Shown piece by piece: positions 1 through 35,854 of a DNA stretch of 38,474 bases (positions are counted from its first letter, which is position 1; every line of letters starts with the position of its first letter). The stretch comes from a virus. Taxonomy: Duplodnaviria; Heunggongvirae; Uroviricota; Caudoviricetes. The notes beneath the pieces were generated by a model. It was not told where the DNA came from. It searched no databases and saw only the letters and a program-made list of their open reading frames with translations. Location of the stretch: the IMG/VR virus record IMGVR_UViG_2778261226_000006, one strand, 5' to 3'. Both the position numbers and the translations under genes were made by a program.

Positions 1-1053
1 TTACGGGGTAATGCCAACCGCTGCCGCCACTTTGTCGCCACTTGGCAGCGTTGCCAGAGGATTGAAACGGAGCGCCGTTTCCAGATGATCTGGTGCCAGA
101 TGTGCGTAACGCATAGTCATTTTTATATCGTGGTGTCCGAGAATTTTTTGTAAGGCGAGAATGTTTCCACCCGACATCATGAAGTGCGCCGCAAATGTAT
201 GGCGCAGAACGTGTGTGAGTTGACCGCGAGGGAGCACGATAGACGTTTTTTCCATCACGGATAAAAATTGAAAATAGCAGTCTGTAAAGAAATTGAACCC
301 ATCAAGCGCCATGATCTCTTCGTAAAGCTCTTTACTGATAGGGATGCTTCTGTTTTTCTTCCCCTTCGTTCTGACAAAGGTAATTCGGTATTTGGTCACC
401 TGTGAGCGGGTAAGATTTACGGCTTCACGCCAGCGTGCGCCTGTGCTTAAGCATATCTTAACTACCAGTGCCAGAATCGGGTCCTGACGTTTACAATCAG
501 CCAGCAATTCAACAATCTGCTCATGGGTAAGCCATGCCATCTCTTTTTCTGCGATGGTGAATTTTCGCATGTTCTCCAGTGGGTTCGGATACGACCATTC
601 GCCCAGGCGGGATAGTTCGCTAAAAACACTACTTAGATAGCTTTGCTCCAGGTTAATGGTGACCGGGCTTGCTCCTTTCTTCCATTTCTCGCTGAAGTAG
701 ATCTCACCTGTCAGGCGTTTATCTCGATAGTGGGCAAACATTTTAGAGGTGAGATCGGTTGCTAGGGGATTGCCCAGAGCGTCAACCATCAACAGCAATT
801 TATCATAGACATGCTGCCCAGCGGTTAGAGATTTACCATGTAGTTTGAACCATAGCTCAACCACGTCTTTCAGTGTTCGACGATCCACTGATTCTCCCAG
901 CCAGGGCTTTGCTTCGGTTTCTTCCATCGTATGGCGCTCAAAAGCCAGAGCTTCGCCTTTGGTGGCGAATTGTTTACGCACACGACGCCCACTACGTCCG
1001 GCGGGGTAACATTCGCAAAGCCATTTTCCTGTGGTGAGTTTTCGTACTGCCAT
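1..1053 (-). CDS. int: Tyrosine integrase (P2/186-family phage integrase)
   Basis: Track ORF 1..1131 (-); preferred start is ATG at 1051-1053 (Met27 of track ORF) preceded by GGAGGG SD; C-terminal HxxR...Y signature (HVLRHTFAAH ... RYAHL); stop codon occupies window positions 1-3. Confidence 0.85.
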   Translation of the reverse strand: MAVRKLTTGKWLCECYPAGRSGRRVRKQFATKGEALAFERHTMEETEAKPWLGESVDRRTLKDVVELWFKLHGKSLTAGQHVYDKLLLMVDALGNPLATDLTSKMFAHYRDKRLTGEIYFSEKWKKGASPVTINLEQSYLSSVFSELSRLGEWSYPNPLENMRKFTIAEKEMAWLTHEQIVELLADCKRQDPILALVVKICLSTGARWREAVNLTRSQVTKYRITFVRTKGKKNRSIPISKELYEEIMALDGFNFFTDCYFQFLSVMEKTSIVLPRGQLTHVLRHTFAAHFMMSGGNILALQKILGHHDIKMTMRYAHLAPDHLETALRFNPLATLPSGDKVAAAVGITP

Positions 1054-1239
1054 AAAAAATGCCCTCCAATAGAGAGCATTTTTACTGTATGTATAACCAG
1101 TGTCAATGTATGAAATCCTGCGACCATACATCTCACTGAAGCCATAATGAAGTTGGCTATTTTTTGCTATGTGAGTATGTGACTTTTGCGGTTAGCCTGC
1201 GGCTCATTGTTATATTAGGCGCAGATATAAAAGCAAAAT

Positions 1240-1446: not shown

Positions 1447-2016
1447 TTACCTAACGTACTTAATTGTTAAACTTATAATTTTCCCAATTATTTCAACATC
1501 TTCTATCTTGCACTCGAAGGCTCTGTTTCCACCTTCAACGAAGATTCTTCCACCGGGTAAACGAGTAATGTCGCGGATTGTTATTTCGCCATCAATACTT
1601 ATTACCCATTTACCGTCACGTATATCATCAAATTCTTTATCACAAATAAATTCAGAATTGTTATCTGTGATGACAAAAGGTTTTTTAAACGTAGAGGGTA
1701 GAAATCCCTTATCAAAAATATAAAAACCGTCTTCACGCAAGGCACCATCAGATAATACATATTTAGCAACTTCCATAGTATTTGTATTACCTGAAGTTTG
1801 CTTTGAACCATGTCCGGTTGTGAGCCAATTAAGCGAGGTGCCCGTTTCAAGGGCGCACTGGATTACCCATTCTGCTGGGAATGAGTCACGCATGTAGCGT
1901 GTGGCGAGTGTACTTTTAGAGATTCCTAAATGATCGCACAACGCCTGTCGAGTTTTGAATCCATAAGCTTCTACCATGCGCTCTATAGCGCCTCGTCCGC
2001 CTTTCTCCAAATTCAT
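1447..2016 (-). CDS. cI: CI-type immunity repressor (186-like, long form with N-terminal HTH)
   Basis: Track ORF 1447..2022 begins with GTG; in-frame ATG at 2014-2016 has GGAG SD; HTH-like segment RQALCDHLGISKSTLATRYMRD; divergent from apl/cox-like gene; position between int and cox as in P2/186 prophages. Confidence 0.8.
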   Translation of the reverse strand: MNLEKGGRGAIERMVEAYGFKTRQALCDHLGISKSTLATRYMRDSFPAEWVIQCALETGTSLNWLTTGHGSKQTSGNTNTMEVAKYVLSDGALREDGFYIFDKGFLPSTFKKPFVITDNNSEFICDKEFDDIRDGKWVISIDGEITIRDITRLPGGRIFVEGGNRAFECKIEDVEIIGKIISLTIKYVR

Positions 2017-2141
2017 GGTCACTCCAAGTGAACTTTTATCTTGACGATTTCAATGTGCGATCGTATGTTTATGGTGTTCACAAAATACAAACGATCCGTA
2101 TTCGTCCTGATTAATCATCATTAAACGAGGAATGTTGCATC
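2017..2141. promoter_or_regulatory. Divergent lysis/lysogeny switch region (operators and promoters between cI and apl/cox)
   Basis: 125-bp intergenic region between divergently transcribed repressor and cox/apl; inverted hexamers GTGAAC (2028-2033) and GTTCAC (2076-2081); TTGACG -35-like hexamer at 2041-2046; exact operators not resolved. Confidence 0.35.
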
Positions 2142-2395: not shown

Positions 2396-2905
2396 ATGTT
2401 TGATTACCAAGTTTCCAAACATCCACATTTTGATGAAGCCTGTCGTGCATTCGCATTGCGCCACAACCTAGTGCAACTGGCAGAACGTGCAGGCATGAAT
2501 GTGCAGATTCTGCGGAACAAGCTGAACCCAGCTCAACCTCATTTATTAACCGCACCAGAAATCTGGTTGCTTACCGATCTGACTGAAGATTCAACGCTGG
2601 TAGATGGCTTTCTGGCACAGATTCACTGCCTGCCATGTGTACCGATTAATGAGGTGGCAAAAGAGAAACTGCCGCATTACGTCATGAGTGCAACTGCAGA
2701 GATAGGGCGTGTCGCGGCAGGTGCGGTTTCTGGCGATGTAAAAACCAGTGCAGGCCGTCGTGATGCGATCAGCAGCATTAACTCTGTTACACGACTGATG
2801 GCGCTGGCTGCTGTTTCATTGCAGGCCCGTTTACAGGCTAATCCTGCGATGGCGAGTGCAGTTGATACCGTGACTGGCCTCGGTGCTTCATTCGGTTTGC
2901 TGTGA
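2396..2905 (+). CDS. cII: CII-like early regulatory protein (186 CII family)
   Basis: Track ORF starts at TTG 2390; ATG at 2396 with GAGG SD gives 169 aa, the size I recall for 186 CII; position immediately after apl/cox. Confidence 0.55.
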
Positions 2906-2912
2906 GGTGCTT

Positions 2913-3113
2913 ATGCTGACGAAAGAACCATCATTTGCATCGCTGCTGGTAAAACAAAGTCCGGCAATGCACTACGGTCACGGCTGGATCATGGGTGAGG
3001 ATGGTACACGCTGGCATCCGTGCCGTTCACAAGATGAATTGCTGGCAGAACTATCTACGAAAAAACGGGGGAACAAATGGCTATTGAAGGCGCTGCGGCG
3101 ACTGTTCCATTAA
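2913..3113 (+). CDS. Hypothetical early-region protein
   Basis: ATG 2913 preceded by GAGGTG SD, immediately after cII stop (2903-2905); 66 aa; no recognisable motif. Confidence 0.4.
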   Translation: MLTKEPSFASLLVKQSPAMHYGHGWIMGEDGTRWHPCRSQDELLAELSTKKRGNKWLLKALRRLFH

Positions 3114-3418
3114 GACCCGGTGAACGCCTGAATGGACTTAATCATATTGCGGAGTTAAGGGCGAAAGTTTTTGGTTTGAATATTGAGTCAGAGCTTGAGC
3201 GGTTTATTAAAGATATGCGTGATCCTCGGGATATCAATAATGAACAAAATAAACGGGCACTGGCTGCCATATTCTTTATGGCAAAAATTCCAGCTGAACG
3301 TCATAGCATCAGCATTAATGAGCTGACCACTGACGAAAAGCGGGAGTTGATTAAAGCAATGAATCATTTTCGTGCAGTGGTGAGCTTATTTCCCAGACGG
3401 CTAACCATGCCGAATTAA
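3077..3418 (+). CDS. Hypothetical early-region protein
   Basis: 113-aa ORF with GGGGGAA SD before ATG 3077; overlaps the preceding ORF in another frame. Confidence 0.45.
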   Translation: MAIEGAAATVPLRPGERLNGLNHIAELRAKVFGLNIESELERFIKDMRDPRDINNEQNKRALAAIFFMAKIPAERHSISINELTTDEKRELIKAMNHFRAVVSLFPRRLTMPN

Positions 3419-3485
3419 CCAACTAATGAAATTAATGGCGTAAACCCGCCGGGCATCCCTTTATCTAAATTCAGGAGAATTGCTT

Positions 3486-3719
3486 ATGCGTAATATTGAA
3501 ACCCTCACGACCAAAACCGGACCGGATGATGCAGGTCTTAATCTTTTACTGACAGAGGCTCGTCTGGAAGAACGCCGGGCAAGGGCTGAAGCAATGGCTG
3601 CTCGCCTCGATAGCCTGGCGTGTCATATCACCTCCCGCCAGCTAAACCACGTCGAAGCGGCAGAACTGCTGCGTGTGACTGCTGAAGCAATCCAGAACGA
3701 AGCGCAGGAGATCCACTGA
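3486..3719 (+). CDS. Hypothetical early-region protein (helical, Arg/Glu-rich)
   Basis: ATG 3486 with AGGAGA SD 7 nt upstream; 77 aa; stop TGA overlaps next start (TGATG at 3717-3721). Confidence 0.45.
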   Translation: MRNIETLTTKTGPDDAGLNLLLTEARLEERRARAEAMAARLDSLACHITSRQLNHVEAAELLRVTAEAIQNEAQEIH

Positions 3720-3946
3720 TGGCTGATGCAATGGATCTCGTACAGCAGCGCGTTGAAGAAGAACGCCAACGCCATATCCGTGCTGCCCGTGCCAAAACGC
3801 CGGGCGTGTCCCGCGTGCTTTGCGTTGAGTGTGAAGCGCCAATTCCGCCAGCACGCCGCCGTGCCATTCCGGGTGTGCAGCTTTGCATTACCTGTCAGGA
3901 AATCGCAGAGCTGAAAGGCAAACATTACAACGGATGTGCTGTATGA
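3719..3946 (+). CDS. TraR/DksA-family C4 zinc-finger protein
   Basis: 75 aa with CxxC...CxxC (CVECEAPI ... CITCQE) in the arrangement typical of phage TraR-like proteins; translationally coupled to flanking genes. Confidence 0.7.
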   Translation: MADAMDLVQQRVEEERQRHIRAARAKTPGVSRVLCVECEAPIPPARRRAIPGVQLCITCQEIAELKGKHYNGCAV

Positions 3947-4797
3947 GCACCATCCTGAAATGGGCAGGAAATAAAACCGCCATAATGTCCGAACTGAAAA
4001 AGCATCTTCCTGCTGGCCCGCGACTGGTTGAACCTTTCGCGGGTTCCTGTGCAGTGATGATGGAGACGGATTATCCCAGCTATCTTGTTGCGGATATTAA
4101 TCCTGATTTAATCAACCTCTATAAAAAGGTTGCTGCTGATTGTGAGGCGTTTATATCTCGTGCCAGAGCTTTATTTGAGGAAGCAAACAGGGAGGTGGCT
4201 TATTACAACATAAGGCAGGAGTTTAATTACTCCACTGAAATTACTGATTTCATGAAAGCGGTATATTTCCTGTATCTCAATCGTCACGGTTACCGTGGTT
4301 TATGTCGCTATAACAAGAGCAGGCATTTCAACATTCCCTACGGTAATTATAAAAATCCGTATTTCCCTGAAAAAGAAATTCGCGCATTTGCAGAGAAAGC
4401 CCAGCGGGCAACGTTTATCTGCGCCAGCTTTGATGAAACGCTGGCGATGTTGAAGGTGGGGGATGTGGTGTATTGCGATCCGCCTTATGACGGTACGTTT
4501 TCCGGCTATCACACTGATGGTTTCACTGAAGATGATCAGTATCACCTGGCATCCATTCTTGAACATCGGTCATCAGAAGGACATCCGGTCATTGTTTCTA
4601 ACAGTAACACGTCTTTGACCCGGTCCCTTTATCGTAATTTCACTCACCACTACATCAGGGCGAAACGCAGCATCGGCGTTGCAGCGGGGGAGGGAAAATT
4701 TGCAACAGAGATGATTGCCACTAAATCTGCTAATTGGTTTAGTGCCGATTTTAGTAGGGGACGTGACTCTACTGTTATTTTCGGGGTGCAAGTGTGA
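3943..4797 (+). CDS. dam: DNA adenine (N6) methyltransferase, Dam family
   Basis: ATGA overlap with upstream stop (3943-3946); SAM-binding motif FAGSCAV near N-terminus and catalytic DPPY motif; track ORF 3883..4797 has a likely spurious 5' extension. Confidence 0.85.
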
Positions 4798-5624
4798 AAG
4801 AAATGCACCACGGAATTCATCATTTCCATGGGACGCCTGTCTGGGGAAGTGCTGGCGACGTTCATCGTATTGCGGTGAGCGGAGCTGGCGCTTTCGTCTC
4901 CTATGTACGACCAGATCAGATTGCGGCGTCCATTCAGCACGCTCAGGTCGTCGGCATTGATAACGGCGCATTTTCTGCATGGGTGCGTGGGCTAAAAATT
5001 AACTGGAGTGATTTTTATAAATGGCTCCTGAACTATTACCACCATCCTAAGGTCGCTTTTTTTGTCATTCCTGATGTTGTGGACGGAGGTGAACGTGACA
5101 ATGATGCCCTGATAAACGAAGTTCCGAAAATGTTCTACGGGAAGGCAACTCCCGTCTGGCATCTGCACGAGTCAATCGATCGGCTTATCGAGCTATGTCG
5201 TGAATGGCCTCGTGTCTGCTTTGGATCGTCTGGTGAATATGCGGCTATCAGAACTGCGCACTGGCATCGTCGTATGCAGGACGCTTTTGAAGCAATTTAT
5301 TGCCGACACAATTTCAAAACAGCTGTTCATGGTTTGCGCATGCTTGACGGTCGTGTGTTGGGAAATTACCCACTGGCGACTGCCGACAGTACAAATCTTG
5401 CCTGCAATGTCCCCAAATTTAATAGCAAATATCCTGAGCTGACGCGGGCTATTCAGGAGGCTGAGTATTCGCGCAATCTGACGGAAAAGGAGCTGAAAGC
5501 TGTCATTCTGAAAAACCGTTGCGCAATTTTAAAAGGTGCAATTGAAGCTGTTCGCCCACCTTCAGTTTCTGATTGGCTGTCGAATGGTTTGCAGCCTTCA
5601 CAGCTCGAACTGGAGATTGCGTAA
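4794..5624 (+). CDS. Hypothetical protein co-operonic with dam; possible TGT-fold (DpdA-like) enzyme, unverified
   Basis: 276-aa ORF overlapping dam stop (GTGA) and A start (TAATG); His-rich N-terminus; segment [12 protein letters not shown] resembles the D-S/N-G-G/A-F catalytic loop of tRNA-guanine transglycosylase-fold proteins; no C-terminal Zn CxCxxC; function assignment is a by-eye hypothesis. Confidence 0.5.
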
Positions 5625-7996
5625 TGAACTACAGCTATTCCTGGAATGCTGAGAAAAAAGCAATCAATCCTTACGTAGAGACAGAAGAGCAATCTTCAGT
5701 TTCTGCGCTTTCAAACCTGATCGCTCTGTACGCTGCCGATAACGAGCAGGAACAGCTGCGCCGCGAGGCACTGAGTGATCAGGTCTGGGAGCGTTATTTC
5801 TTTAATGAATCCCGTGATCCTGTCCAGCGCGAAATGGAGCAGGATAAGCTCATTAGTCGGGCAAAGCTGGCGCATGAGCAGCAGCGTTTTAATCCAGATA
5901 TGGTCATTCTGGCGGACGTCAATGCCCAGCCTTCCCATATCAGCAAGCCGCTGATGCAACGTATTGAATACTTCAGCAGCCTGGGCAGGCCAAAGGCTTA
6001 TTCCCGCTATTTGCGTGAGACGATTAAGCCATGTCTGGAACGGCTGGAGCATGTACGCGACTGTCAGCTATCCACTTCTTTTCGCTTTATGGCAAGCCAT
6101 GAAGGGCTGGACGGCCTGCTGATCCTGCCTGAAATGAGTCAGGATCAGGTGAAACGCCTGTCCACCCTGGTAGCTGCGCATATGAGCATGTGCCTTGATG
6201 CAGCTTGTGGCGATTTGTATGTCACCGATGACGTTAAGCCAGAAGAAATCCGCAAGACATGGGAAAAGGTGGCAGCGGAAACCCTGCGTCTGGATGTCAT
6301 CCCGCCTGCGTTTGAGCAACTCCGCCGGAAAAGAAACCGCCGTAAACCCGTGCCCTATGAACTCATTCCGGGTTCGCTGGCGCGTATGTTGTGCGCTGAC
6401 TGGTGGTACCGGAAATTATGGAAGATGCGTTGCGAATGGCGGGAAGAGCAGTTGCGTGCTGTCTGCCTGGTCAGCAAAAAAGCATCTCCCTATGTCAGCT
6501 ATGAAGCCGTGATGCATAAACGTGAGCAGCGCCGTAAGTCGCTGGAGTTTTTTCGTTCTCATGAACTGGTGAACGAAGACGGCGACACGCTGGACATGGA
6601 GGATGTGGTAAACGCCAGCAGCAGCAACCCTGCGCATCGCCGCAATGAGATGATGGCCTGTGTTAAAGGCCTGGAGCTTATCGCGGAAATGCGCGGTGAC
6701 TGCGCCGTTTTCTACACCATCACCTGTCCGTCACGTTTCCATTCCACGCTAAATAATGGCAGGCCCAACCCAACTTGGACAAATGCGACGGTAAGACAAA
6801 GCAGTGATTATCTGGTCGGCATATTTGCTGCATTTCGTAAGGCGATGCACAAAGCCGGATTGCGGTGGTATGGCGTGCGGGTGGCTGAGCCGCATCATGA
6901 CGGTACAGTTCACTGGCACCTGTTGTGTTTTATGCGCAAAAAAGACCGCCGCGCCATCACTGCATTACTGCGTAAGTTTGCCATCCGTGAAGACCGCGAG
7001 GAACTGGGCAATAACACTGGGCCGCGCTTTAAGTCTGAGTTGATTAACCCGCGCAAAGGTACGCCAACAAGCTACATCGCGAAATACATCAGTAAGAACA
7101 TTGACGGGCGTGGTCTGGCTGGCGAGATCAGCAAGGAAACGGGTAAATCTCTGCGTGATAACGCTGAATACGTTAATGCCTGGGCGTCTCTGCATCGTGT
7201 TCAGCAATTCCGCTTCTTTGGCATTCCGGGGCGTCAGGCTTACCGTGAACTGCGATTGCTGGCTGGTCAGGCGGCAAGGCAACAGGGTGACAAAAAAGCA
7301 GGTGCGCCGGTACTGGATAACCCGCGCCTTGATGCCATTCTGGCTGCAGCTGATGCTGGTTGCTTTGCCACCTACATCATGAAGCAGGGCGGCGTACTGG
7401 TTCCCCGTAAATATCACCTCATCAGAACCGCTTATGAAATCAACGAAGAGCCGACCGCCTATGGCGATCACGGTATTCGTATTTATGGCATCTGGTCACC
7501 CATTGCAGAGGGCAAGATCTGCACTCATGCAGTGAAGTGGAAAATGGTTCGTAAAGCCGTTGACGTTCAGGAGGCGGCAGCCGACCAGGGCGCTTGCGCC
7601 CCTTGGACTCGTGGCAATAACTGTCCCCTTGCTGAAAATTTGAACCAACAAGGGAAAGACAAATCAGCTGATGGGGATACCAGAACGGACATTACCCACA
7701 TGGATGACAAGGAGTTGCACGATTACCTGCACAGTATGAACAAAAAAGAGCGCCGGGAACTGGCTGCAAGGTTACGCCTGGTGAAACCGAAACGGCGTAG
7801 AGACTACAAACAGCGAATTACAGACCATCAACGACAGCAGCTCGTCTATGAACTGAAGTCCAGAGGATTTGATGGCAGCGAGAAAGAGGTCGATTTACTC
7901 CTTCGCGGCGGCAGTATTCCGTCAGGAGCAGGCCTGCGTGTCTTCTATCGGAACCAGCGTTTGCAGGAAGATGATAAGTGGCGGAACCTGTATTAA
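5624..7996 (+). CDS. A: Replication initiation protein A (rolling-circle HUH endonuclease)
   Basis: 790 aa from ATG 5624 (TAATG overlap with upstream gene); HUH-like motif VHWHLL and two-tyrosine motif YIAKYISK (Y-x3-Y); size and position match P2/186 gene A; track ORF 5573 start is a likely 5' extension. Confidence 0.85.
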
Positions 7997-8964: not shown

Positions 8965-9576
8965 ATGGATTTAGTCTTTAAAGTTCTGGCTTCGTTGGGT
9001 GGGGTGTCTTTTGTTGCATCTGGCATATTTGTTTGGATCGGGAAAGTTTATTTAGAAAGATATAAGTCGCGGCTAAACAAAGATATTGCTGAATTTCAAT
9101 CACAACTGAGTGCAACTAATGAAAGAATAAAGGCTAAGTTAGACAATTCTGTTTATGTAACGAAAGCGTATTTTGATAAGGAGTTATCAGCATATAGTCT
9201 CATTTGGAATTCGATGTTTGAAACCAGAGAAAGCGTGCTTAAGCTGAGGCCTGCGCTGGATCATGTTGACCCCAACGAACCATTTGAAGAGAGAAAATTT
9301 AGAAGGTTGAAAGTTTTTTTTGATGCATTTAACACTTTTGTTACAAGTGTTGAATCTAACAAACCGTTCATCTCACCAGAGGTTTATATAATCTTGGACC
9401 GTTTCCGGAAGGAATGCCTTTCAGAGTCAATATCGTTTAAGCATAGCGATCCAGAATTTGACGGGCAAAATTATTGGAAAGAGGCGGAGTTGAACCATAC
9501 AACCATCACCAAGCTTTTTGATGAGACGTGTGATGCAATTCGAAACAGGATGCACACATTAACTGTGGTTACGTAG
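8965..9576 (+). CDS. Membrane-anchored hypothetical protein in the tin/old position (candidate exclusion/defence gene)
   Basis: 203 aa; N-terminal hydrophobic helix VLASLGGVSFVASGIFVWIG followed by charged helical domain; AT-rich relative to phage core; own promoter and SD GGTGGGGG; located between replication gene and candidate cos. Confidence 0.6.
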   Translation: MDLVFKVLASLGGVSFVASGIFVWIGKVYLERYKSRLNKDIAEFQSQLSATNERIKAKLDNSVYVTKAYFDKELSAYSLIWNSMFETRESVLKLRPALDHVDPNEPFEERKFRRLKVFFDAFNTFVTSVESNKPFISPEVYIILDRFRKECLSESISFKHSDPEFDGQNYWKEAELNHTTITKLFDETCDAIRNRMHTLTVVT

Positions 9577-9825: not shown

Positions 9826-10350
9826 ATGACTGTTTTACACCTTGTAGCAGACCACCTTGTTAAGCAGGCTAATACAACCCATAGAAAGGGGGAGGTGCAC
9901 GCAATATTAGCAGATGCATATGGTCGTTCTGCTTTTAATCGGTATTATTATGCTTGTTTTCTTAACGTCCGTGAGTTTGTTTCAACTATTGATTCCAATT
10001 GGGGCAAGGTCAAGCATGCAGATGTTCCAAAATTATTACGTGATAGTGTAAGTAGAAAGATAGAAGTTGAGCTCCAAAAATCAGAAAAAATTGGCGATAT
10101 AACTTTATGTGAATATAAATCTAAAAAGAGCTTAATACGTACTTCACTGAACAATATGGCTTCAACTATGGCATTGGCATATACAATTAGGGGAGTTGTT
10201 GATTATGAGCCGGAAATTGAGATGATATTCTGTAATGGCAGTTTTTCGATTAATAAAACATCAGTGGCTTCGGCTAAGGGGTGGCTACAAACCATTAATT
10301 CAGAAAGATCGAAGGTTACCAGAATTATGAAGGAGATTGGCTTTGTCTAA
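9826..10350 (+). CDS. Hypothetical protein, upstream gene of pair preceding the retron (candidate accessory/effector)
   Basis: 174-aa ORF from ATG 9826; overlaps the next ORF; no Walker, HNH, TM or other recognisable motif by eye. Confidence 0.6.
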   Translation: MTVLHLVADHLVKQANTTHRKGEVHAILADAYGRSAFNRYYYACFLNVREFVSTIDSNWGKVKHADVPKLLRDSVSRKIEVELQKSEKIGDITLCEYKSKKSLIRTSLNNMASTMALAYTIRGVVDYEPEIEMIFCNGSFSINKTSVASAKGWLQTINSERSKVTRIMKEIGFV

Positions 10351-11080
10351 CCAGAAAATATTATCAGAATTGTTGGTAAAATTCCCGTTTATAAAAGTTA
10401 AAGATGTAACAGATTTTATGGATACAATTCTGTTGATCATCCCAATTAACAAAATAGTACCATTGTCTGCTTCGAATAGTATAACAAAACGCCAGATATC
10501 TTTATTGGTGAAACGAATAACAGAAAAGCTAAATGTAAGAGTGTTGATTAGTTACTCACCATTTTCAGATAAAGACAATATTGAAGCGGCTTTAGTGGCG
10601 TTAGCGAGAAGTAATTTTAAAAAAGGGAAGATATCTGATTTGAATTTATCTTTCTTTGATTCGCAAAACGCAGTGCTTTATGTCTTTTGTAAAAACCTTA
10701 CATTATCAGAACGCGAGAAGTGGGAGTCGTTAGTTGTAGGGATATTAAACGGTTTTAATATAAAAGTGACTTCATTTGTATATGAGGCTAAAAATAATCC
10801 TGAACCTACAATGATGGTTATTTTAAGAGCGGCAAAAAAATGTCAGCCCTTTGATCTTCCAAGATTGTTCAGTCAACTTGATAATGGCGATTATCATATT
10901 GAATCACTTGATTGGCTGAATGGGAAGCTAGACAACTTACGTAAGAAAGGATTTTTATTAAGAAGCCATGACGGAACTTATAGAATGACATTGTCAGGGT
11001 TAGAAATAGTTCCAGTGACTAAATCTAGGCAAAGTTCTGATATAGAGAGGGTCCTTTATCTTGCACGCAAACATCTATAG
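10337..11080 (+). CDS. Hypothetical protein, second gene of pair preceding the retron (candidate accessory/effector)
   Basis: 247 aa as tracked from TTG 10337; likely start TTG 10343 with AAGGAG SD (10330-10335), implying translational coupling to the upstream ORF; alternating hydrophobic/charged N-terminal region, C-terminal segment KKGFLLRSHDGTYRMTLSGLEIV; family unknown. Confidence 0.6.
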   Translation: MALSNQKILSELLVKFPFIKVKDVTDFMDTILLIIPINKIVPLSASNSITKRQISLLVKRITEKLNVRVLISYSPFSDKDNIEAALVALARSNFKKGKISDLNLSFFDSQNAVLYVFCKNLTLSEREKWESLVVGILNGFNIKVTSFVYEAKNNPEPTMMVILRAAKKCQPFDLPRLFSQLDNGDYHIESLDWLNGKLDNLRKKGFLLRSHDGTYRMTLSGLEIVPVTKSRQSSDIERVLYLARKHL

Positions 11081-11089
11081 TGGTATATT
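11061..11089 (+). promoter_or_regulatory. Candidate sigma70 promoter for retron msr-msd-ret transcript
   Basis: -35 TTGCAC (11061-11066), 17-bp spacer, -10 TATATT (11084-11089); predicted start about 11096, coinciding with the a1 repeat. Confidence 0.45.
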
Positions 11090-11095
11090 CGCGTT

Positions 11096-11268
11096 GGTAG
11101 TGGCGTTCACGAGAGTATGCATCATGCTCATTTGTGAAGGTCGCGGACAGAATGTGCGCCTGCGAATCAGCAGTCGTTCCTTCGAAACGTCTGCTGATTC
11201 GCAGGCGTCATCAACGAAAGTTTTCATCAGCTTTGCTTAAGGATTGACCTTATGAAAACGCCACTACC
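11096..11268 (+). ncRNA. Candidate retron non-coding RNA (msr-msd)
   Basis: 12-nt perfect inverted repeat GGTAGTGGCGTT (11096-11107) / AACGCCACTACC (11257-11268) as a1/a2; GAGAG immediately after a1 (candidate branching G region); 17-bp perfect stem 11157-11173 / 11191-11207 as msd hairpin; directly upstream of and overlapping the start of the retron-type RT. Confidence 0.5.
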
Positions 11269-12229
11269 CTTATTTTTCACATTCACTGATGCCGAACAGT
11301 TTCTTAAGGCGTTGAGCACACCGCTGAGAGATAGATATTCTGCGGAACTTATTCGACTACAAGGCCTCAGGCTTCCCCCATTAGTTTCTTGGAGTATCTT
11401 GTCTGTTGCCATTGGCGTAAGCCCACAATTTATTACTTCGTTAATTAAGAATAAGTCAAAATACTATCGTGTTTTTTCTATTTCCAAAGGAAGAGGAAAG
11501 AAAAAAAGAATTATTGAAGCACCCAAGGTTAGTATAAAAATCATTCAGTCTTGGGTCGCTCATCATTTAAGCATTAATCATAGTCTTGGCATAAGTGAAA
11601 ATGCATATGCTTTTATCCCAGGTAAGAATGGGATATATGAAGCTGCAAGTAAACATTGTGGTGCAAAATGGATCCTGTCTATTGATTTAAGAGATTTTTT
11701 CCATACGATCACTTCAGATATAGTGATTTCAACATTAGTTGAAATCGGATATAGAGCCGATCAGGCTGCTAAATTGAGTGAATTACTTACCTTGAATCAG
11801 AGACTTCCGCAAGGTGCGCCAAGTAGCCCTGTTATCTCAAATTTAGTATTTAGGTCAACTGACTTAAAGATTAATGAGTTGATTTCTAATACGGGTATTA
11901 AATATACTAGATATGCTGATGATTTGACCTTCTCCGGTGATGATGAAACATTTGATATCGAGGAACTTAAAGATAATGTTGTAGAGTTGTTACTATCTGA
12001 TAATTGGGTTGTGGCTGAGGAAAAACTCAGAATAGCTAGGATTCCTAATAGATTAAAAGTACATGGTTTTCTAGTTCATGAAAATAAACCTAGATTGACT
12101 AAAGGCTATCGAAATAAAATTAGAGCATATAAACATTTATTGAGGACTGGGAAAATAGTTGAGAAGGATTTTGATAAAATTAAAGGGCATGTTAACTATA
12201 GTGAATATATTGATAGATTGAATGAGTAA
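11252..12229 (+). CDS. ret: Retron-type reverse transcriptase
   Basis: 325 aa; RT motifs LSIDLRDFFHTIT, LPQGAPSSPVISNLVF and YTRYADDLTFSG (YADD catalytic box), plus RLKVHGFLV in the position of the retron VTG motif; N-terminal Y..F.I.K..G..R.I..P pattern; close by-eye similarity to Ec86-type retron RT motifs. Confidence 0.9.
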   Translation: MKTPLPLFFTFTDAEQFLKALSTPLRDRYSAELIRLQGLRLPPLVSWSILSVAIGVSPQFITSLIKNKSKYYRVFSISKGRGKKKRIIEAPKVSIKIIQSWVAHHLSINHSLGISENAYAFIPGKNGIYEAASKHCGAKWILSIDLRDFFHTITSDIVISTLVEIGYRADQAAKLSELLTLNQRLPQGAPSSPVISNLVFRSTDLKINELISNTGIKYTRYADDLTFSGDDETFDIEELKDNVVELLLSDNWVVAEEKLRIARIPNRLKVHGFLVHENKPRLTKGYRNKIRAYKHLLRTGKIVEKDFDKIKGHVNYSEYIDRLNE

Positions 12230-12248: not shown

Positions 12249-13280
12249 TTAATTTAATGTGTATATTCCAAAGGATATGATTTTATCTCCTATCCAGTTA
12301 TTTAACTCTTCTAGTCTTCTCTGTAATGGTATTAACTCATTCCTCACAAAAACAAGGCTTGCCTTCTCCACATCCCCAAAACCCCCAACATTATTAGGCA
12401 TTATCCCCATCATTTGTGGGGGTACACGATGCGCCGCCATCATGTCGTCCCGGCTTACGTTCTTGATGTTCAGAAACTCATCCTTCGCCGCGACTTCTGA
12501 TAACGGGATAATCTGAAGTCCGTCCTTTTTGCCGTTAGGAGAGTACATAAACAGATTGCGGAAGTTACCTGGTCCTTTGGCGCTTTTCATTGCATTGCGG
12601 AGGTTGTTCACATCCTCCTGGTTTTGTGCGGCGTCGGTCATGTACATGATGAAGCCTGCATGACTGCCGTTGATGTAATACTTCCGGCGGAACAGCGTGG
12701 CGGACTCGTTGAGCAGGGCTGACGGAATGGCAGAAAGATAACCGGGCAGGCCGTAGATCTCCTGGTTGATGTCCGGTTCCATCAGATGAAAAATGCTGCC
12801 TTTCGTGAACTGATACGGCTGGGTTGTCATACCGTATTGCACAAACCAGTAGGTATCCAGGTCTAACCCGCGTCGGGTGTATTTTGCCAGAGCAGGCTCA
12901 AGGGCGATAACTTCACCAAACCGGTTCGTGCGTTTCTCCAGGTAGGCGTTACCAAATACCAGATAGTCCTGCACAAAACGTGAAAAAGCCTGTTGGCTGA
13001 GCAGCGGGTGAGGGATGTAGGTGCTGGTCAGAATGTTGCATTTCACCGCAATCGGTGAGCTGTGATGCACGGCGGCGCGGAAGGTTCGCGCCAGTCCGTC
13101 AAAGCTGACGGGAGGCTCATACCAGCGATCTGTCTGTACGCATTCCACATAGTCCAGCAGTTCGCGGCGGTCAAGTACTGGAATGGGATCACCGAAGCTG
13201 AAAGCCTCAGCCGTTGGAGCGTTGCCTGGTTTTGTGTTGTGATCAACCTTTACCAGTTTGATGTTTTTATGTTTGCTCAT
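12249..13280 (-). CDS. Q: Portal protein (P2 gpQ-like)
   Basis: 343 aa, essentially the size of P2 Q; position before terminase large subunit on the same strand; ATGA overlap with upstream gene. Confidence 0.85.
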   Translation of the reverse strand: MSKHKNIKLVKVDHNTKPGNAPTAEAFSFGDPIPVLDRRELLDYVECVQTDRWYEPPVSFDGLARTFRAAVHHSSPIAVKCNILTSTYIPHPLLSQQAFSRFVQDYLVFGNAYLEKRTNRFGEVIALEPALAKYTRRGLDLDTYWFVQYGMTTQPYQFTKGSIFHLMEPDINQEIYGLPGYLSAIPSALLNESATLFRRKYYINGSHAGFIMYMTDAAQNQEDVNNLRNAMKSAKGPGNFRNLFMYSPNGKKDGLQIIPLSEVAAKDEFLNIKNVSRDDMMAAHRVPPQMMGIMPNNVGGFGDVEKASLVFVRNELIPLQRRLEELNNWIGDKIISFGIYTLN

Positions 13281-13987
13281 TCTGCCAGCTCCTCGTTAGC
13301 AAGAGGCCATTCGCACATAAACAGCATTCCCCAGTCCTCTGCTGATAATTCTTTTTTCATATCATTCAGCCAGTTATCAGTAAACAACATTGCTCCTGAT
13401 GCTACTGCATCATCAGCGGTGAATACCATGCGGGTTACACTGTTGTTTCTGCTTAGCTTTTTATATTCCTGCCATGCCTCCGGGTTAGGGCTGGGAGTGG
13501 TGTAGTAGGTGGCGTGGTGGTGTGCGTGCAAGGACATTCCTTTGGCGAGAGTAATCATATTTCTCGGTGATTCAGCCCAGGCATACTCTGACACGTAGAC
13601 ATTTCCACTGAGTGCGGCGGCGTGGCACTTGAGGTCGATAAAATAAATGACCGCACCATTGGGAAACTCCAGATATGTTTTGCCAGATTTTATTTTTCCA
13701 GTGCGCGTATAAGCTGCGGTCTGGCTTAAAAATGCTGACACATAGGCTTTGACTGCCTGCGCTGATGCGGTGCTGCAGCAGAGGAAAATCTGGTTACGCC
13801 CGGTATGCAGTGCATCGATCAGGGCCTCATAGGCAAAAAAGAAATCCGCTCCTGCCTGGCGCATTTTTGTGAGTAAACGGTTTCTACTCTTTGGGCCAGT
13901 GTTCCACTCATACTGGTAATCAAAGAAAGTGCTATCCACCGGAAGTCCCGCGATAGTCATGAGGTTAGTTGGGATTGGGGGCATCAA
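13277..13987 (-). CDS. Terminase large-subunit ATPase-domain paralog (truncated, diverged)
   Basis: 236 aa; aligns by eye to the central region of the adjacent P protein (AGADFFFAYEALIDALHTGRNQIFL vs IGATFYFAHEALIDALLTGRNQIFL; FPNGAVIYF vs LPNGATLYF; NVYVSEYAW vs NLYLDEYFW); lacks P's N-terminal ~150 aa and C-terminal nuclease region; ATGA overlaps at both ends. Confidence 0.7.
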   Translation of the reverse strand: MMPPIPTNLMTIAGLPVDSTFFDYQYEWNTGPKSRNRLLTKMRQAGADFFFAYEALIDALHTGRNQIFLCCSTASAQAVKAYVSAFLSQTAAYTRTGKIKSGKTYLEFPNGAVIYFIDLKCHAAALSGNVYVSEYAWAESPRNMITLAKGMSLHAHHHATYYTTPSPNPEAWQEYKKLSRNNSVTRMVFTADDAVASGAMLFTDNWLNDMKKELSAEDWGMLFMCEWPLANEELAE

Positions 13988-15750
13988 AAAATCTCCACAA
14001 TATTGCTGGTATTGGCGGACTCGCCCTGCAGCGGTTCGTTAAACAGTGCGTGCATTGTTGCCCAGGCCAGATCGGCATGGCTGGCTTCTTCGCTGCGGCT
14101 GGCTTCATAGGTCGGGCGGTTGCCGCTGGCGGTGGTGGCGCGACGGATTGCCATAAATGACTGCGCAATGTCGGTGTGCCCGGCGTCAAACTCCAGACGG
14201 CGGTGGCTGATAATGTCGTAGGCCTTGAGTACCAGGGCGTTTTTAACGTTGGGGTTGTAGACAAACTCCCGGACGGCAGGAAAGAACGCTTTCACGTTCT
14301 CGTAAACTCCGTGACCGACACCTGTCGAGTCGATACCGATATAGGTCACGTTGTACTGTTCGGTCAGTTTTTTGATGGCGTCAGCCTGGGCGCGGAAGTC
14401 CATCCCGCGCCACTGGTGACGCTCAAGAATGCGAAACTTACCGCCTGGCACGGCTGGCGGTGCCACCACCACGCATCCGGCGCTGTCGCCGTTCTGCGTA
14501 CCTTTTGCCGGGTCATAACCGATCCACACTTCTCGCCAGCCAAACGGGCGCAGGGCCAGTGCATGAAAGTCGGTCCAGACTTCCCAACTGTCCACCATGC
14601 ATGCCTGCAGCTCGCTGAGCGGAAATACGGACGCGAGATCGTCCACGAATTCACACATCAGCAGGTTCTGGTATTCGTCCGGGCTGTATTCCATGCGCAA
14701 CTGGTCAAGGTCGAACAGGTTACAGCCGCCGCGCACCGCATCTTCCACGGTGACTATCTGGCGGTATTGCCCGTCTGCACACAGCAGGCCTGGAGCCAGA
14801 TTGCTGTGGGACAGGTCGATGTCCACCTTGTCGGCTTTATTGCGCCCACGGTTGAATAGCGCACCGGACCAGAACGGATAAGCACTGTGTGTCAGGCTGG
14901 ATGGCGTGGAAAAATAGGTTTGTCGCCATTTTTTGTGAATAGCCATACCGGAAGCCACTTTGCGCAGCTCCTGGAATTTCGGTATCCAGAAATATTCATC
15001 CAGATACAGGTTTCCGTGGTAACTCTGGGCCGTGCGGGCATTGGTGCCGAGGAAATACAGTGTGGCCCCGTTGGGAAGCACCATCGGATCGCCTTTCAGC
15101 TCCACTTCCACTTCTTTGGCGAAGTCGATGATGTACTGCTTAAAGACGTGGGCCTGTGCCTTGCTGGCGGAAAGGAAAATCTGGTTACGTCCGGTAAGCA
15201 GAGCGTCAATCAGGGCTTCATGGGCAAAGTAAAAGGTCGCGCCGATCTGGCGTGACTTCAGCAGGTTGCGGATGCGGTTGGTTTTTCCGGCTTCCCACCA
15301 GTGGCGCTGGTAGTTGAACATGGAGGAATGGAAGATTTCTTCCAGCTTCTCAATCTGCTCATCGGTGAAAACATTCTTTTCCGGCTGACGGCGCGGGCCT
15401 TTGTTGCGGTTGGCGACGTTAGGGTTTAAGTCGGCTTCGTTGCCGCCATTGTTAAACTTGCCGATCCGCGCGTGGCGTTCCGACTGGCGCGCCAGCAGGT
15501 CAATCTCTTTGAAATCTTTCCCTTCTTTGTGCTCCTTCATAATGAGCTGGCAGTAGCGTGCGGCGGTGGTGAGCTGCATCTGATCCAGCGGCCCATAGTC
15601 ACCCCACTTGTCGCGTTTCTTCCAGCTGTGAACGGTTGCAACTTTCTCGCCCAGCATTTCAGCAATGCGGGCTACACGGTATCCCTGAAAGTACAGCAGC
15701 ATGGCCTGCCGACGGGGATCGAGATCTGCGGGTGTCAGTGTGGTGTTCAT
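13984..15750 (-). CDS. P: Terminase large subunit (P2 gpP-like ATPase/nuclease)
   Basis: 588 aa, close to P2 P size; N-terminal HTH-like region, central ATPase region, C-terminal extension; divergent from O across a late-promoter region. Confidence 0.9.
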   Translation of the reverse strand: MNTTLTPADLDPRRQAMLLYFQGYRVARIAEMLGEKVATVHSWKKRDKWGDYGPLDQMQLTTAARYCQLIMKEHKEGKDFKEIDLLARQSERHARIGKFNNGGNEADLNPNVANRNKGPRRQPEKNVFTDEQIEKLEEIFHSSMFNYQRHWWEAGKTNRIRNLLKSRQIGATFYFAHEALIDALLTGRNQIFLSASKAQAHVFKQYIIDFAKEVEVELKGDPMVLPNGATLYFLGTNARTAQSYHGNLYLDEYFWIPKFQELRKVASGMAIHKKWRQTYFSTPSSLTHSAYPFWSGALFNRGRNKADKVDIDLSHSNLAPGLLCADGQYRQIVTVEDAVRGGCNLFDLDQLRMEYSPDEYQNLLMCEFVDDLASVFPLSELQACMVDSWEVWTDFHALALRPFGWREVWIGYDPAKGTQNGDSAGCVVVAPPAVPGGKFRILERHQWRGMDFRAQADAIKKLTEQYNVTYIGIDSTGVGHGVYENVKAFFPAVREFVYNPNVKNALVLKAYDIISHRRLEFDAGHTDIAQSFMAIRRATTASGNRPTYEASRSEEASHADLAWATMHALFNEPLQGESANTSNIVEIF

Positions 15751-24196: not shown

Positions 24197-25713
24197 GCAC
24201 AAAATTTTATACCCTGCTGACGGATATTGGCGCGGCGAAACTTGCCAGCGCCGCCGCGCTCGGTGTGCCGCTAAAAATTACCCATATGGCGGTGGGCGAT
24301 GGCGGTGGAGTATTGCCAACGCCGGACGCAAAGCAGACGGCACTGGTAAATGAGAAACGCCGGGCTGCGCTGAATATGCTTTATATCGACCCGCAGAACA
24401 GCAGCCAGATTATTGCCGAACAGGTGATCCCTGAAAACGAGGGCGGTTGGTGGATACGTGAAGTGGGCTTGTTTGATGAGTCCGGGGCATTGATTGCCGT
24501 GGGCAACTGCCCGGAAAGCTATAAGCCGCAACTGGCTGAAGGTAGCGGGCGCACTCAGACCGTGCGCATGGTGCTGATTACCAGCAGCACGGACAATATC
24601 ACCCTGAAAATCGACCCTGCTGTAGTGCTGGCAACCCGCAAGTATGTGGATGACAAGGCACTGGAGCTGAAGGTGTACGCGGATAATCAGATGGCAAAAC
24701 ATCTTGCCGCACCGGACCCGCATTCACAGTACGCGCCAAAAGCCAGCCCAACATTTACCGGAACCCCCAAAGCGCCGACGCCAGCGGCGGGGAATAATAC
24801 CACGCAACTTGCGACCACCGCGTTTGTTCAGGCGGCACTGACAGCCCTGATTAATGGTGCGCCAGCCACGCTGGACACGCTGAAAGAAATAGCCGCAGCC
24901 ATTAACAATGATCCGAATTTCAGTACCACCATTAACAATGCGCTGGCACTAAAAGCACCGTTGTCGAGTCCGGCACTCACCGGAACGCCAACAGCCCCCA
25001 CGGCGGCGCAGTCGGTCAACAATACACAGATTGCCACTACGGCTTTTGTGAAATCGGCGATTGCAGGAATGGTGGGTTCTGCACCTGCTGCACTGGATAC
25101 ACTGAACGAACTGGCGGCGGCACTGGGGAATGATCCGAACTTTGCCACGACAATGCTTAATGCGCTGGCAGGTAAACAACCGCTGGACAATACGCTTACC
25201 AATTTGAGTGGAAAGGATGTAGCTGGTCTTCTCGCATACCTTGGTTTGGGAGAAGGCTCTGCATTACCGGTTGGTGTGCCTATTCCGTGGCCTTCAGCCA
25301 CTCCGCCAATGGGGTGGCTAAAATGTAACGGAGCAGTATTTTCTTCTGAAAAGTACCCAAATCTGGCAAAGGCTTACCCAACATTAAAATTACCAGATTT
25401 ACGCGGTGAATTTATTCGTGGCTGGGATGATGGGCGCGGGATTGACTCTGGTCGTAACTTATTATCTGCACAGAATGATGCAATTCAGAATATTGTTGGT
25501 TCTTTTGGGCGTACCCAGCTTTTTAGAGACGTACTTAGTTCAGGGCCATTTAGTCAACATGGGCAAGTATTATCTACAGGTCTAAAGGAAGCCGAAATTA
25601 TTGAGGGTTATGGCGCTTATAACTGGACATTCGACGCATCTCGCTCAGTTCGCACAGCATCTGAAACCCGCTCCCGTAACATCGCCTTTAATTATATTGT
25701 GAGGGCTGCATGA
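24193..25713 (+). CDS. H: Tail fibre protein (P2 gpH-like) with invertible C-terminal segment
   Basis: 506 aa; internal tandem ~72-aa repeats; C-terminal ~153 aa lies beyond the crossover site at 25229-25254 (encoding LGLGE) and is exchangeable by inversion. Confidence 0.85.
   Translation: MSTKFYTLLTDIGAAKLASAAALGVPLKITHMAVGDGGGVLPTPDAKQTALVNEKRRAALNMLYIDPQNSSQIIAEQVIPENEGGWWIREVGLFDESGALIAVGNCPESYKPQLAEGSGRTQTVRMVLITSSTDNITLKIDPAVVLATRKYVDDKALELKVYADNQMAKHLAAPDPHSQYAPKASPTFTGTPKAPTPAAGNNTTQLATTAFVQAALTALINGAPATLDTLKEIAAAINNDPNFSTTINNALALKAPLSSPALTGTPTAPTAAQSVNNTQIATTAFVKSAIAGMVGSAPAALDTLNELAAALGNDPNFATTMLNALAGKQPLDNTLTNLSGKDVAGLLAYLGLGEGSALPVGVPIPWPSATPPMGWLKCNGAVFSSEKYPNLAKAYPTLKLPDLRGEFIRGWDDGRGIDSGRNLLSAQNDAIQNIVGSFGRTQLFRDVLSSGPFSQHGQVLSTGLKEAEIIEGYGAYNWTFDASRSVRTASETRSRNIAFNYIVRAA
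24730..25190 (+). repeat. Tandem in-frame repeat (2 copies, about 225 bp each) inside tail fibre gene H
   Basis: Protein-level repeats ...GTPKAPTPAAGNNTTQLATTAFV...DTLKEIAAAINNDPNFSTTINNALALKAPL and ...GTPTAPTAAQSVNNTQIATTAFV...DTLNELAAALGNDPNFATTMLNALAGKQPL. Confidence 0.6.
25229..25254. other. Invertase crossover site, left (hix/gix/cix-like 26-bp site)
   Basis: TTCTCGCATACCTTGGTTTGGGAGAA: imperfect palindrome; right half-site TTGGTTTGGGAGAA is repeated in inverted orientation at 27174-27199; located inside H at the constant/variable boundary. Confidence 0.7.
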
Positions 25714-26315
25714 TAAGTAAAGCTGTATTAAATAATGAACTCATCGCCACAAAGGCCGGAGACATTACCGTTTATAATTATGATGGTGAAACACGGGAAT
25801 ATATTTCCACATCAACTGAATATCTTGCTGTGGGTGTCGGTATCCCGGCATGTTCCTGTTTAGATGCTCCTGGCTCATATAAAGCTGGTTATGCAATTTG
25901 CCGTTCTGCAGATTTTAACTCATGGGAATATGTGCCAGACCATCGCGGTGAAATCGTCTATAGCACCGAAACAGGAGAATCAAAAGAAATCACAGTTCCG
26001 GGTGATTACCCTGAAAATACAACCACTATCGCCCCGTTAACGTCATACGATAAATGGGATGGTGAGAAATGGGTGACCGACACTGAGGCACAGCATAACG
26101 CCGCAGTAGACGCGGCAGAAGTACGGCGCCAGTCACTGATTGATGCGGCTATGGCTTCCATTAGTCTGATTCAGCTGAAATTGCAGGCCGGGCGGAAGCT
26201 GACGCAGGCAGAAACAACCCGGCTTAACGCTGTGCTGGATTACATTGACGCGGTGACTGCAACAGATATCAGCACCGCGCCGGATGTCATCTGGCCTGAA
26301 CTACCGGAGGCGTAG
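25710..26315 (+). CDS. G: Tail fibre assembly protein (P2 gpG-like), currently expressed orientation
   Basis: 201 aa; ATGA overlap with H stop; inside invertible segment. Confidence 0.75.
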   Translation: MISKAVLNNELIATKAGDITVYNYDGETREYISTSTEYLAVGVGIPACSCLDAPGSYKAGYAICRSADFNSWEYVPDHRGEIVYSTETGESKEITVPGDYPENTTTIAPLTSYDKWDGEKWVTDTEAQHNAAVDAAEVRRQSLIDAAMASISLIQLKLQAGRKLTQAETTRLNAVLDYIDAVTATDISTAPDVIWPELPEA

Positions 26316-27199: not shown

Positions 27200-27254
27200 T
27201 GCAGAGGTAACAGCTAACTGGCATCATCTCCGGTTTTTATTCAGGGGGATGATC

Positions 27255-35631: not shown

Positions 35632-35698
35632 TTTGCCGCCAAAGATAAGTAAAGTAGTTTCTAACTTATTGATTATGGAATGGAAGAATAGCAGGCAA

Positions 35699-35742
35699 CA
35701 AAAAACCCATCAACCTTGAACCGAAATGGCGGGGTTGATGGG
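35699..35742 (-). terminator. Rho-independent terminator downstream of ybjL
   Basis: CCCATCAACC (35706-35715) / GGTTGATGGG (35733-35742) 10-bp stem; on the minus strand followed by a U-tract (plus-strand A-run 35700-35705). Confidence 0.6.
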
Positions 35743-35854
35743 CTCCACAAAATGGGGACATCAAAGAAAAGCAGTGGCACTAATTAAGACTGATGCCCTG
35801 CGGAAAAGTTCTGCGGTTGTGCAAAAAAATTTCATTTTCAGGGCAACTTCAGTT

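Follow-up and report, generated by a model that had tools for sequence, protein, structure and literature searches.

In Escherichia phages CAjan and 9g (Queuovirinae), the DpdA1 enzymes have been proven to insert 7-cyano-7-deazaguanine (preQ0) into DNA. Deletion of dpdA from CAjan abolishes dPreQ0 in phage DNA, and 9g DpdA alone in Escherichia coli introduces dPreQ0 into plasmid DNA (PMC6884629); therefore the preQ0 pool of E. coli is sufficient. Both phages have folE/queD/queE/queC genes of their own, to which Gat-QueC and YhhQ may be added, and 25-32% of their guanines are modified; one gene in the que cluster of CAjan bears the annotation of a putative preQ0 transporter. A second type, the "singleton" DpdA, forms a cluster specific to gamma-proteobacterial phages (Hutinet et al., 2019, PMC6884629). 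It was termed "group 3" in Hutinet 2019 and "DpdA/TGT_1" in Simoliuniene 2021, and includes proteins of about 230-276 aa from phages without preQ0 genes, namely the Salmonella P2-like phages SEN1 and SW9, Pantoea phage MED16 and Salmonella phage 7-11. MED16 encodes DpdA only, and its DNA carries the deoxynucleoside of 7-amido-7-deazaguanine (ADG), dADG, at 354 per 10^6 nucleotides, or 0.13% of guanines (Simoliuniene et al., 2021, PMC8306585). Phage 7-11, also DpdA only, carries dADG at 50 per 10^6 nucleotides, or 0.02% of guanines (Hutinet et al., 2019, PMC6884629). The hosts of the DpdA-only enterobacterial phages possess the full queuosine pathway (PMC6884629). Here we describe ORF276, an open reading frame (ORF) of 276 codons at positions 4794-5624 (plus strand, GTG start) of IMG/VR record IMGVR_UViG_2778261226_000006, a stretch of 38,474 nucleotides (hereafter the window) that represents a P2/186-like prophage of E. 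coli. ORF276 is a new E. coli member of the already published singleton group; the label "hypothetical" is that of RefSeq.

Three other systems bear on ORF276. Bacterial DpdA (Salmonella Montevideo, PDB 7UI4) is a 413-aa protein with a structural zinc and a large Ins8, whereas ORF276 has neither. In bacteria, DpdA needs the ATPase DpdB and formation of dADG needs DpdC (PMC10164549); the enzyme works with DpdC and with the restriction genes dpdD-K, and none of these genes lies beside ORF276, the neighbours of which all belong to the early or replication genes of P2. The key residues of bacterial DpdA are D95 (acid/base), F99, D130 and H181 (base recognition, H181 at the Watson-Crick edge) and D256 (nucleophile) (PMC10164549). 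Cap10, from the type IV cyclic oligonucleotide-based antiphage signaling system (CBASS; PDB 9NTN), shows 11% identity to ORF276, binds 7-amido-7-deazaguanine on the N-terminus of the cGAS/DncV-like nucleotidyltransferase (CD-NTase) and works with the QueC-like Cap9. Cap10 belongs to a defence operon, whereas ORF276 stands alone within the early operon of a phage; both are without the zinc cluster. The tRNA-guanine transglycosylases (TGTs; bacterial TGT, ArcTGT and QTRT1) have the same fold and probably share the double-displacement mechanism, as the conserved Asp pair suggests. On the other hand, they contain a zinc subdomain, are about 100 aa longer, act on tRNA and have no detectable sequence match with ORF276, for which the predicted substrate is DNA.

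ORF276 is probably a stand-alone ("singleton") phage DpdA, i.e., a minimal zinc-less DNA-guanine transglycosylase of the TGT fold that would place a host-made 7-deazaguanine into phage DNA (probability about 0.72). It matched phrog_887 ("queuine tRNA-ribosyltransferase") with E=2.4e-96, and the same PHROG also takes CAjan DpdA (8e-96), MED16 DpdA, 7-11 DpdA and a homologue from the lambdoid phage HK106. A family profile was built from 62 diverse representatives of the ORF276 relatives, with a mean column identity of 28%. When this profile was compared with CAjan DpdA by hhalign, a probability of 98.8% was obtained (E=8e-17, 171 columns), although the identity between CAjan DpdA and ORF276 is just about 17-22%. 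In this alignment the DNGAF of ORF276 is in register with DSGAF of CAjan DpdA, WH(123)LHE with FHFGE, G(144)SSG with GGMVG, VH(179)GL with LHAF and AD(198)ST with CDSS. The by-eye suggestion of the original prediction that this ORF may encode a DpdA-like transglycosylase is thus borne out by the shared PHROG and the profile alignment. Its description as unassigned holds for RefSeq and fails for the literature (PMC8306585) and PHROGs.

The closest phage proteins found by tblastn were SEN1 gp38 and SW9 gp39, with 75% identity, both encoded in the slot directly upstream of gene A; the SEN1 protein is also 276 aa long. An E. coli O111 phage and Flyfo siphovirus Tbat1_6 encode homologues with 60-61% identity. 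Identity was 55% for MED16 DpdA (gp38), 38% for the HK106 protein and 34% for gp032 of phage 7-11, essentially over the full length. SEN1 gp38 and SW9 gp39 had already been recognised as DpdA homologues, the only viral ones on the MED16 branch, in a study that also reported an HHpred probability of 99.2% to Thermotoga TGT (Simoliuniene et al., 2021, PMC8306585). The family is large: the protein databases searched held 4,313 relatives as 90%-identity clusters (555 clusters at 50%), nearly all of them unnamed.

Structure prediction, which the original prediction had proposed as a check on the TGT fold, points the same way. The AlphaFold2 model of ORF276 (predicted local distance difference test score, pLDDT, 90.3; predicted template-modelling score, pTM, 0.88) is a beta/alpha triosephosphate isomerase (TIM) barrel, and its best matches among solved structures were Cap10, bacterial DpdA and archaeal TGT. 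In the viral structure library BFVD, 31 matches were obtained at E<=1e-3. These include several phage proteins that bear the name queuine tRNA-ribosyltransferase and one protein from Vibrio phage nt-1, a DpdA2-encoding phage. The sole residues invariant across the 62 representatives are D56, D94, H123, H179, D198 and S199, and in the model all of them are located where successive barrel strands reach their C-terminal ends, the place at which the active sites of TIM barrels are found. The SEN1, SW9, MED16 and 7-11 proteins, all of which belong to phrog_887, have these residues in common with ORF276.

The invariant set of ORF276 matches the residues of bacterial DpdA and Cap10 by order and spacing, with D56/F60 corresponding to D95/F99 and D198 to D256/D248. 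The D56-N-G-A-F60 codons (4959-4973, plus strand, as are all codons given here) lie at the end of strand 52-56 and are predicted to supply the general acid/base Asp and the base-stacking Phe. The likeness of this loop to the catalytic loop of TGTs, claimed from the letters alone, stands, as it aligns with DSGAF of CAjan. D94 (in IPDV, 5073-5075), just past strand 87-91, is the predicted guanine-recognition Asp. H123 (in WHLHES, 5160-5162) is the conserved DpdA-type His, the equivalent of which is missing from the DpdA2 subfamily (PMC6884629). H179 (in VHGLRML, 5328-5330) is the predicted hydrogen-bond partner of the nucleophile, and D198, with S199 (in TADST, 5385-5390) at the end of strand 196-199, is the predicted nucleophile. 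In Cap10, with key residues D73, D122, H226 and D248, H226 pairs with the nucleophile D248, and the spacing is similar to that of H179/D198. The idea that the Ser-Ser of GSSG confers specificity for the amide base was rejected, as phage 7-11, which also bears dADG, has GCMG at this place. No CxCxxC...H zinc cluster was found in ORF276, in agreement with the claim that the zinc subdomain is missing. Past the last barrel strand there are about 70 residues, a short segment that is mostly helical by prediction and variable among relatives, where only C204 and C243 are conserved.

Membership in the TGT superfamily, together with the label "queuine tRNA-ribosyltransferase" in PHROGs and GenBank, raises the alternative that ORF276 is a tRNA-directed enzyme altering host or phage tRNA modification during infection. 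That label is inherited from the superfamily, however. ORF276 has neither the zinc subdomain nor a match to Pfam TGT, against which E. coli TGT scores 560 bits, no tRNA gene was found within the window, and the characterised members of phrog_887 modify DNA. A tRNA substrate is therefore highly unlikely. It is also conceivable that ORF276 is a diverged TIM-barrel enzyme with another activity, such as a base-excising DNA glycosylase or a sugar-acting enzyme, in which the likeness to DpdA is merely ancestral. The invariant residues are exactly those required by transglycosylation, a close homologue adjoins a gene of the preQ0-transporter family (see below), and homologue-bearing phages have 7-deazaguanine in their DNA, all of which leaves such a divergence with hardly any probability. 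A transglycosylase acting on DNA remains our preferred assignment.

The source of the base was considered next to the gene content of the prophage. None of the genes for making preQ0 (folE/queD/queE/queC) and none of the dpd genes, including dpdB and dpdC, were found in the prophage, and its cargo slot holds a retron without que or dpd genes. Because the prophage is without folE/queD/queE/queC, the base would have to come from the host; the host species, E. coli, has queA and tgt. In Tbat1_6, the 61%-identical homologue adjoins a gene for a transporter of the YhhQ/Vut_1 family (PF02592, 40.5 bits, cutoff 27.2), and YhhQ is described as the specific preQ0 transporter (Hutinet 2019, PMC6884629).

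On this basis the following pathway is proposed. TraR, Dam, DpdA and protein A would be made together from the early lytic operon after induction or infection, and would be silenced by the repressor in the lysogen. On replicated phage DNA, D198 would attack C1' of a target deoxyguanosine to yield a covalently linked enzyme-DNA intermediate, with D56 as the general acid/base, and the excised guanine would be replaced by a 7-deazaguanine base. This base would be drawn from the host queuosine pathway as preQ0 or possibly as the amide ADG. The product would be a sparse dPreQ0 or dADG mark, about 3-25 per genome of about 33 kb if the densities of MED16 and 7-11 are extrapolated, as would be expected of a defined motif of 5-6 bp. 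The mark would coexist with Dam methylation; its most likely function would be escape from host defences that target DNA, the role being the least certain step of the pathway.

Several observations weigh against this assignment. Pfam, NCBIfam and PADLOC gave no match for ORF276, and the PADLOC Dpd models found none among TraR, Dam and ORF276. Searches of PDB sequences with ORF276 alone and with two profiles returned chance coiled-coil matches only. Scanned against Pfam, the 62 representatives likewise gave nothing, and neither they nor ORF276 matched Pfam TGT (PF01702) at E<=1. CAjan DpdA likewise has no Pfam TGT match and no PDB sequence match; therefore the failure of ORF276 with Pfam TGT is no argument against DpdA function. 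The comparison of the family profile with E. coli TGT by hhalign gave a probability of 0.9%, a value made uninformative by the one-sequence template. Within the active site, D94 is the weakest assignment because CAjan DpdA has a Ser at this place, with its nearest Asp three residues on, so that D94 is out of register. DpdB and DpdC are absent here, and if ORF276 yields dADG, the nucleoside present in MED16 and 7-11, its origin would need another explanation. The DpdA-only mycobacteriophage Orion shows no modification, but its host is without the pathway (PMC6884629). Unlike the P2-like prophage studied here, the phages MED16 and 7-11 are lytic or unrelated, and for the P2-like homologues the chemistry is a prediction. 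Moreover, the best solved match, Cap10, handles a protein-linked base and not DNA.

This last point bears on a Cap10-like activity, in which ORF276 would act on protein-attached 7-amido-7-deazaguanine, for example against type IV CBASS or by tagging a phage or host protein. Besides the structural match, the fact that DpdA-only phages contain the base as its amide speaks for such an activity. However, no QueC-like Cap9, no CD-NTase and no nearby gene with an M(G/S)G(G/S)GG N-terminus were found in the prophage, and the sequence kinship of ORF276 is with DNA-acting phage DpdA, as the 98.8% alignment with the CAjan protein indicates. H123 is kept as in DpdA where Cap10 has K154, a correspondence drawn from residue order and not from an alignment. 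In the relatives MED16 and 7-11 the base sits in DNA, and the resemblance to Cap10 may simply reflect that both proteins are small and have lost the zinc subdomain. An activity on protein is thus very unlikely, and we return to DNA as the substrate. A bolder and rather doubtful form of the DpdA assignment is that the zinc-less DpdA clade of temperate P2-like and lambdoid phages might be a self-sufficient, sequence-specific writer of ADG, which would act without DpdB and DpdC, set about 3-25 marks at a defined motif and form a second epigenetic layer beside Dam. ADG is an intermediate of the QueC reaction. Use of ADG taken directly from the host would explain both the presence of dADG rather than dPreQ0 in DpdA-only phages and the finding of Cap10, an ADG binder, as the nearest structure.

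The purpose of the marks is a separate question. Such marks are usually assumed to help the phage evade DNA-targeting defences, and we infer an anti-restriction role for ORF276. Modified guanines also attract dedicated host defences. The low level of dADG in MED16 DNA gave no protection against the restriction enzymes tested, a limited panel with guanine-containing sites (PMC8306585), which is a further point against a protective role. The same DpdA chemistry could serve another purpose, such as regulation of origin use by protein A, of packaging, or of phage/host DNA discrimination. The marks in MED16 and 7-11 are very sparse, the MED16 authors themselves raise non-restriction roles, and ORF276 is translationally coupled to gene A in a position kept across P2-like relatives. 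On the other hand, family members occupy unrelated slots, beside xis/int in the case of HK106 and within the early genes of 7-11, which argues against a role tied to P2 replication. The gene is absent from many P2-like phages and is therefore accessory, as is usual for counter-defence genes, and the enzyme panel used on MED16 DNA was limited. A regulatory or packaging purpose is accordingly considered unlikely, and evasion of host defences is retained as the probable role of the DpdA mark.

The start codon of ORF276 determines how it is joined to the gene before it. RefSeq/PGAP places the start at ATG 4803 (273 aa, WP_001420002.1), which would leave a 5-nt gap after Dam and no overlap. In the great majority of about 45 distinct upstream sequences of related loci, a start codon lies exactly 27 nt 5' of the conserved H-[FY]-H-G. 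This codon is ATG in most Dam-less relatives, often as ATGA or just past TAA, and GTG (in GTGA) in most Dam-bearing relatives; in an 84%-identical group, GTG is the sole available start 3' of the Dam stop. The frames read from this position were 828 nt long in 12 of 12 cases (the window and 11 representative loci). ATG 4803 is not conserved in relatives and was rejected as the true start. The GTG at 4794, and hence the overlap with Dam, is the better-supported reading of the aligned starts. The dN/dS ratio (nonsynonymous to synonymous substitution rate) of ORF276 was 0.04-0.10 against six relatives, with dS near saturation, and these values clearly mark a real gene under strong purifying selection.

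All four overlapping stop/start junctions of the original prediction could be read from the sequence. TGATG (3717-3721) joins the stop of a DUF2732 gene to the start of the TraR gene, ATGA (3943-3946) joins TraR to Dam, GTGA (4794-4797) joins Dam to ORF276, and TAATG (5622-5626) joins ORF276 to gene A. The coupling claimed for TraR, Dam and ORF276 therefore stands, except that TGATG lies outside the named trio. The genes concerned, all on the plus strand, are the DUF2732 gene at 3480-3719 (PF10809, 4e-29; phrog_128); the gene for a 75-aa TraR/DksA-family C4 zinc-finger protein at 3719-3946 (PF01258, 4e-11; phrog_54, 1e-29); the gene for a 284-aa Dam-family N6-adenine DNA methyltransferase at 3943-4797 (PF02086, TIGR00571); ORF276, in phrog_887; and, at the end of the coupled run, replication gene A for the rolling-circle nicking endonuclease at 5624-7996 (PF05840, 3e-128; phrog_91, 1e-287).

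The TraR protein contains a C4 finger of the form C35-x2-C38...C56-x2-C59 and scored 67 bits against TIGR02419 (cutoff 59.7). The Dam protein carries FAGSCAV at residues 32-38 and DPPY at residues 179-182 (nt 4477-4488), both as had been claimed. Its scores are far above the D12/Dam cutoffs, with 1e-75 for Pfam MethyltransfD12 (PF02086) and 314 bits for TIGR00571 (cutoff 115), and it matched the PADLOC orphan methyltransferase with 6e-109. The D12-class profile and the FxGxG and DPPY motifs thus both assign it to this class. GATC specificity of the window Dam can only be presumed because its score with the E. coli Dam equivalog model, 284, falls under the cutoff of 441.

The original prediction had regarded ORF276 as a possible DNA-modifying partner of Dam. 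The DpdA family assignment supports a DNA-modifying protein; "partner" is too strong, as DpdA and Dam each occur alone. Dam was directly upstream of DpdA in 51 of 90 fetched loci, and DpdA followed TraR or a small ORF without Dam in about 30 P2-like loci of the same set, which includes many near-duplicates of a few prophage lineages. In Klebsiella phage 4LV2017 and many relatives, Dam is joined straight to gene A without DpdA. SEN1 has a DUF5405 gene in place of Dam, whereas in the E. coli prophage described here Dam is joined to ORF276 by GTGA. Among 5,426 complete genomes of E. coli, the full cassette was present in at least 102, which is 102 of the 1,244 that match part of the region. About 1,140 of these 1,244 genomes have no full-length match, presumably from independent variation of Dam and DpdA. 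An obligate Dam-DpdA pair was rejected, since each is found in the slot without the other. The TraR-A interval is a variable slot for Dam, DpdA, both, or other small genes, which are independent modules, and each insertion in this slot keeps tight or overlapping junctions.

An adenine methylase also recurs near DpdA in otherwise unrelated arrangements: in MED16 it lies about 1.2 kb upstream, and in a Rosenbergiella locus it lies directly downstream. This recurrence is consistent with the accumulation of two DNA-modification modules in the early region, and mutual dependence does not follow from it. The locus in Rosenbergiella metrosideri (L014, 6001-7686) contains a 62%-identical DpdA homologue without recognisable P2 context. 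There the order is reversed, with a Dam-like gene of 34% identity to the window Dam about 110 nt 3' of DpdA. In a 421-aa protein from one Logan contig (P0011), residues 1 to about 192 of Dam (DPPY included) are fused in frame to DpdA residues 46-276. This protein arose by deletion across the gene junction, with loss of the first DpdA barrel strands, and probably represents either an assembly artefact or a variant without function.

The prophage lies between rcdA and rybB/ybjL. The 2.4-kb region around ORF276 shows 99.9% identity to chromosomes such as those of APEC O78 and strain E2, and the genes common to this prophage and the near-identical prophage of E. coli E2 are all standard P2 genes. 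The host small RNA gene rybB (35697-35775, minus strand; Rfam RF00110, 105 bits) marks the right prophage boundary, between ogr and ybjL; it may lie at or near the attachment site, and the left prophage end runs beyond the window. Upstream of the coupled run, the window contains the integrase gene (1-1131, minus strand), the CI repressor gene (1447-2022, minus strand) and, on the plus strand, the genes for CII (2390-2905), Fil (longest ORF 2883-3113; 2913-3113 in RefSeq) and a DUF5347 protein (3077-3418). A promoter-like site at 2041-2069 (plus strand; TTGACG-17-TATGTT, 9/12 consensus matches) is, by its match to the consensus only, the likely early lytic promoter (pR equivalent) of the ORF276 operon; this would fit the organisation of phage 186 because the site adjoins the divergent CI gene. 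No terminator-like site above chance was found within the early gene run of the window, and the early genes are therefore most likely transcribed as one early lytic unit, like those of phage 186.

The same prophage is present in APEC O78 (locus at NC_020163.1, 1,640,269-1,641,200), where the TraR-Dam-DpdA-A early region is whole. Nearly all late genes are gone from it, and a fragment of the portal gene is fused to a fragment of the tape-measure gene. The early region is intact while the late genes are lost; therefore the Dam/DpdA cassette persists in a defective prophage.

Other features of the prophage were also noted. At the P2 cargo hotspot, which lies between DinI and the portal gene, are the protein genes of a complete type IX retron defence system (9826-12229, plus strand), comprising HEPN_IX (9826-10350, E=1e-52), HTH_IX (10337-11080, E=1.5e-61) and RT_IX (11252-12229, E=4e-129; Pfam RVT_1). 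It is preceded by a 203-aa ORF (8965-9576) without family match. Rfam found nothing in the retron region, and the msr/msd RNA was not located. In near-identical prophages the same place is taken by a DUF2971 gene and an AAA ATPase gene (E2) or by genes for a hypothetical and a TIR protein (APEC O78). An extra 236-aa ORF (13277-13987, minus strand) separates gene P for the terminase ATPase (13984-15750) from gene Q for the portal protein (12249-13280) and shares 4 nt with each. This ORF encodes a diverged lone copy of the N-terminal domain of the terminase ATPase (Pfam Terminase_6N, 3e-17), with about 36% identity to ordinary P2-family terminases and 66-71% identity to the equivalent ORFs of two phages, vB_YpM_MLG42 of Yersinia and 500465-1 of Escherichia, and it is absent from the E2 prophage. 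A Hin/Gin-type serine invertase gene (27249-27821; Resolvase, 7e-53, and HTH_7) adjoins opposed cassettes of tail-fibre C-terminus and assembly genes (25710-26315, plus strand; 26287-26730 and 26733-27227, minus strand). The arrangement looks like an invertible host-range switch and is absent from the E2 relative.

These results suggest that WP_001420002.1 and hundreds of enterobacterial prophage proteins now called "hypothetical" deserve the label of DpdA-family DNA transglycosylases. Because the P2/186-like prophage of E. coli is temperate, inducible and tractable, it offers a convenient system in which the base, the sites and the role of a singleton DpdA can be addressed. Moreover, several host systems attack deazaguanine-modified DNA, and the question whether marks on about 0.02-0.1% of guanines aid the evasion of defences thereby gains weight.

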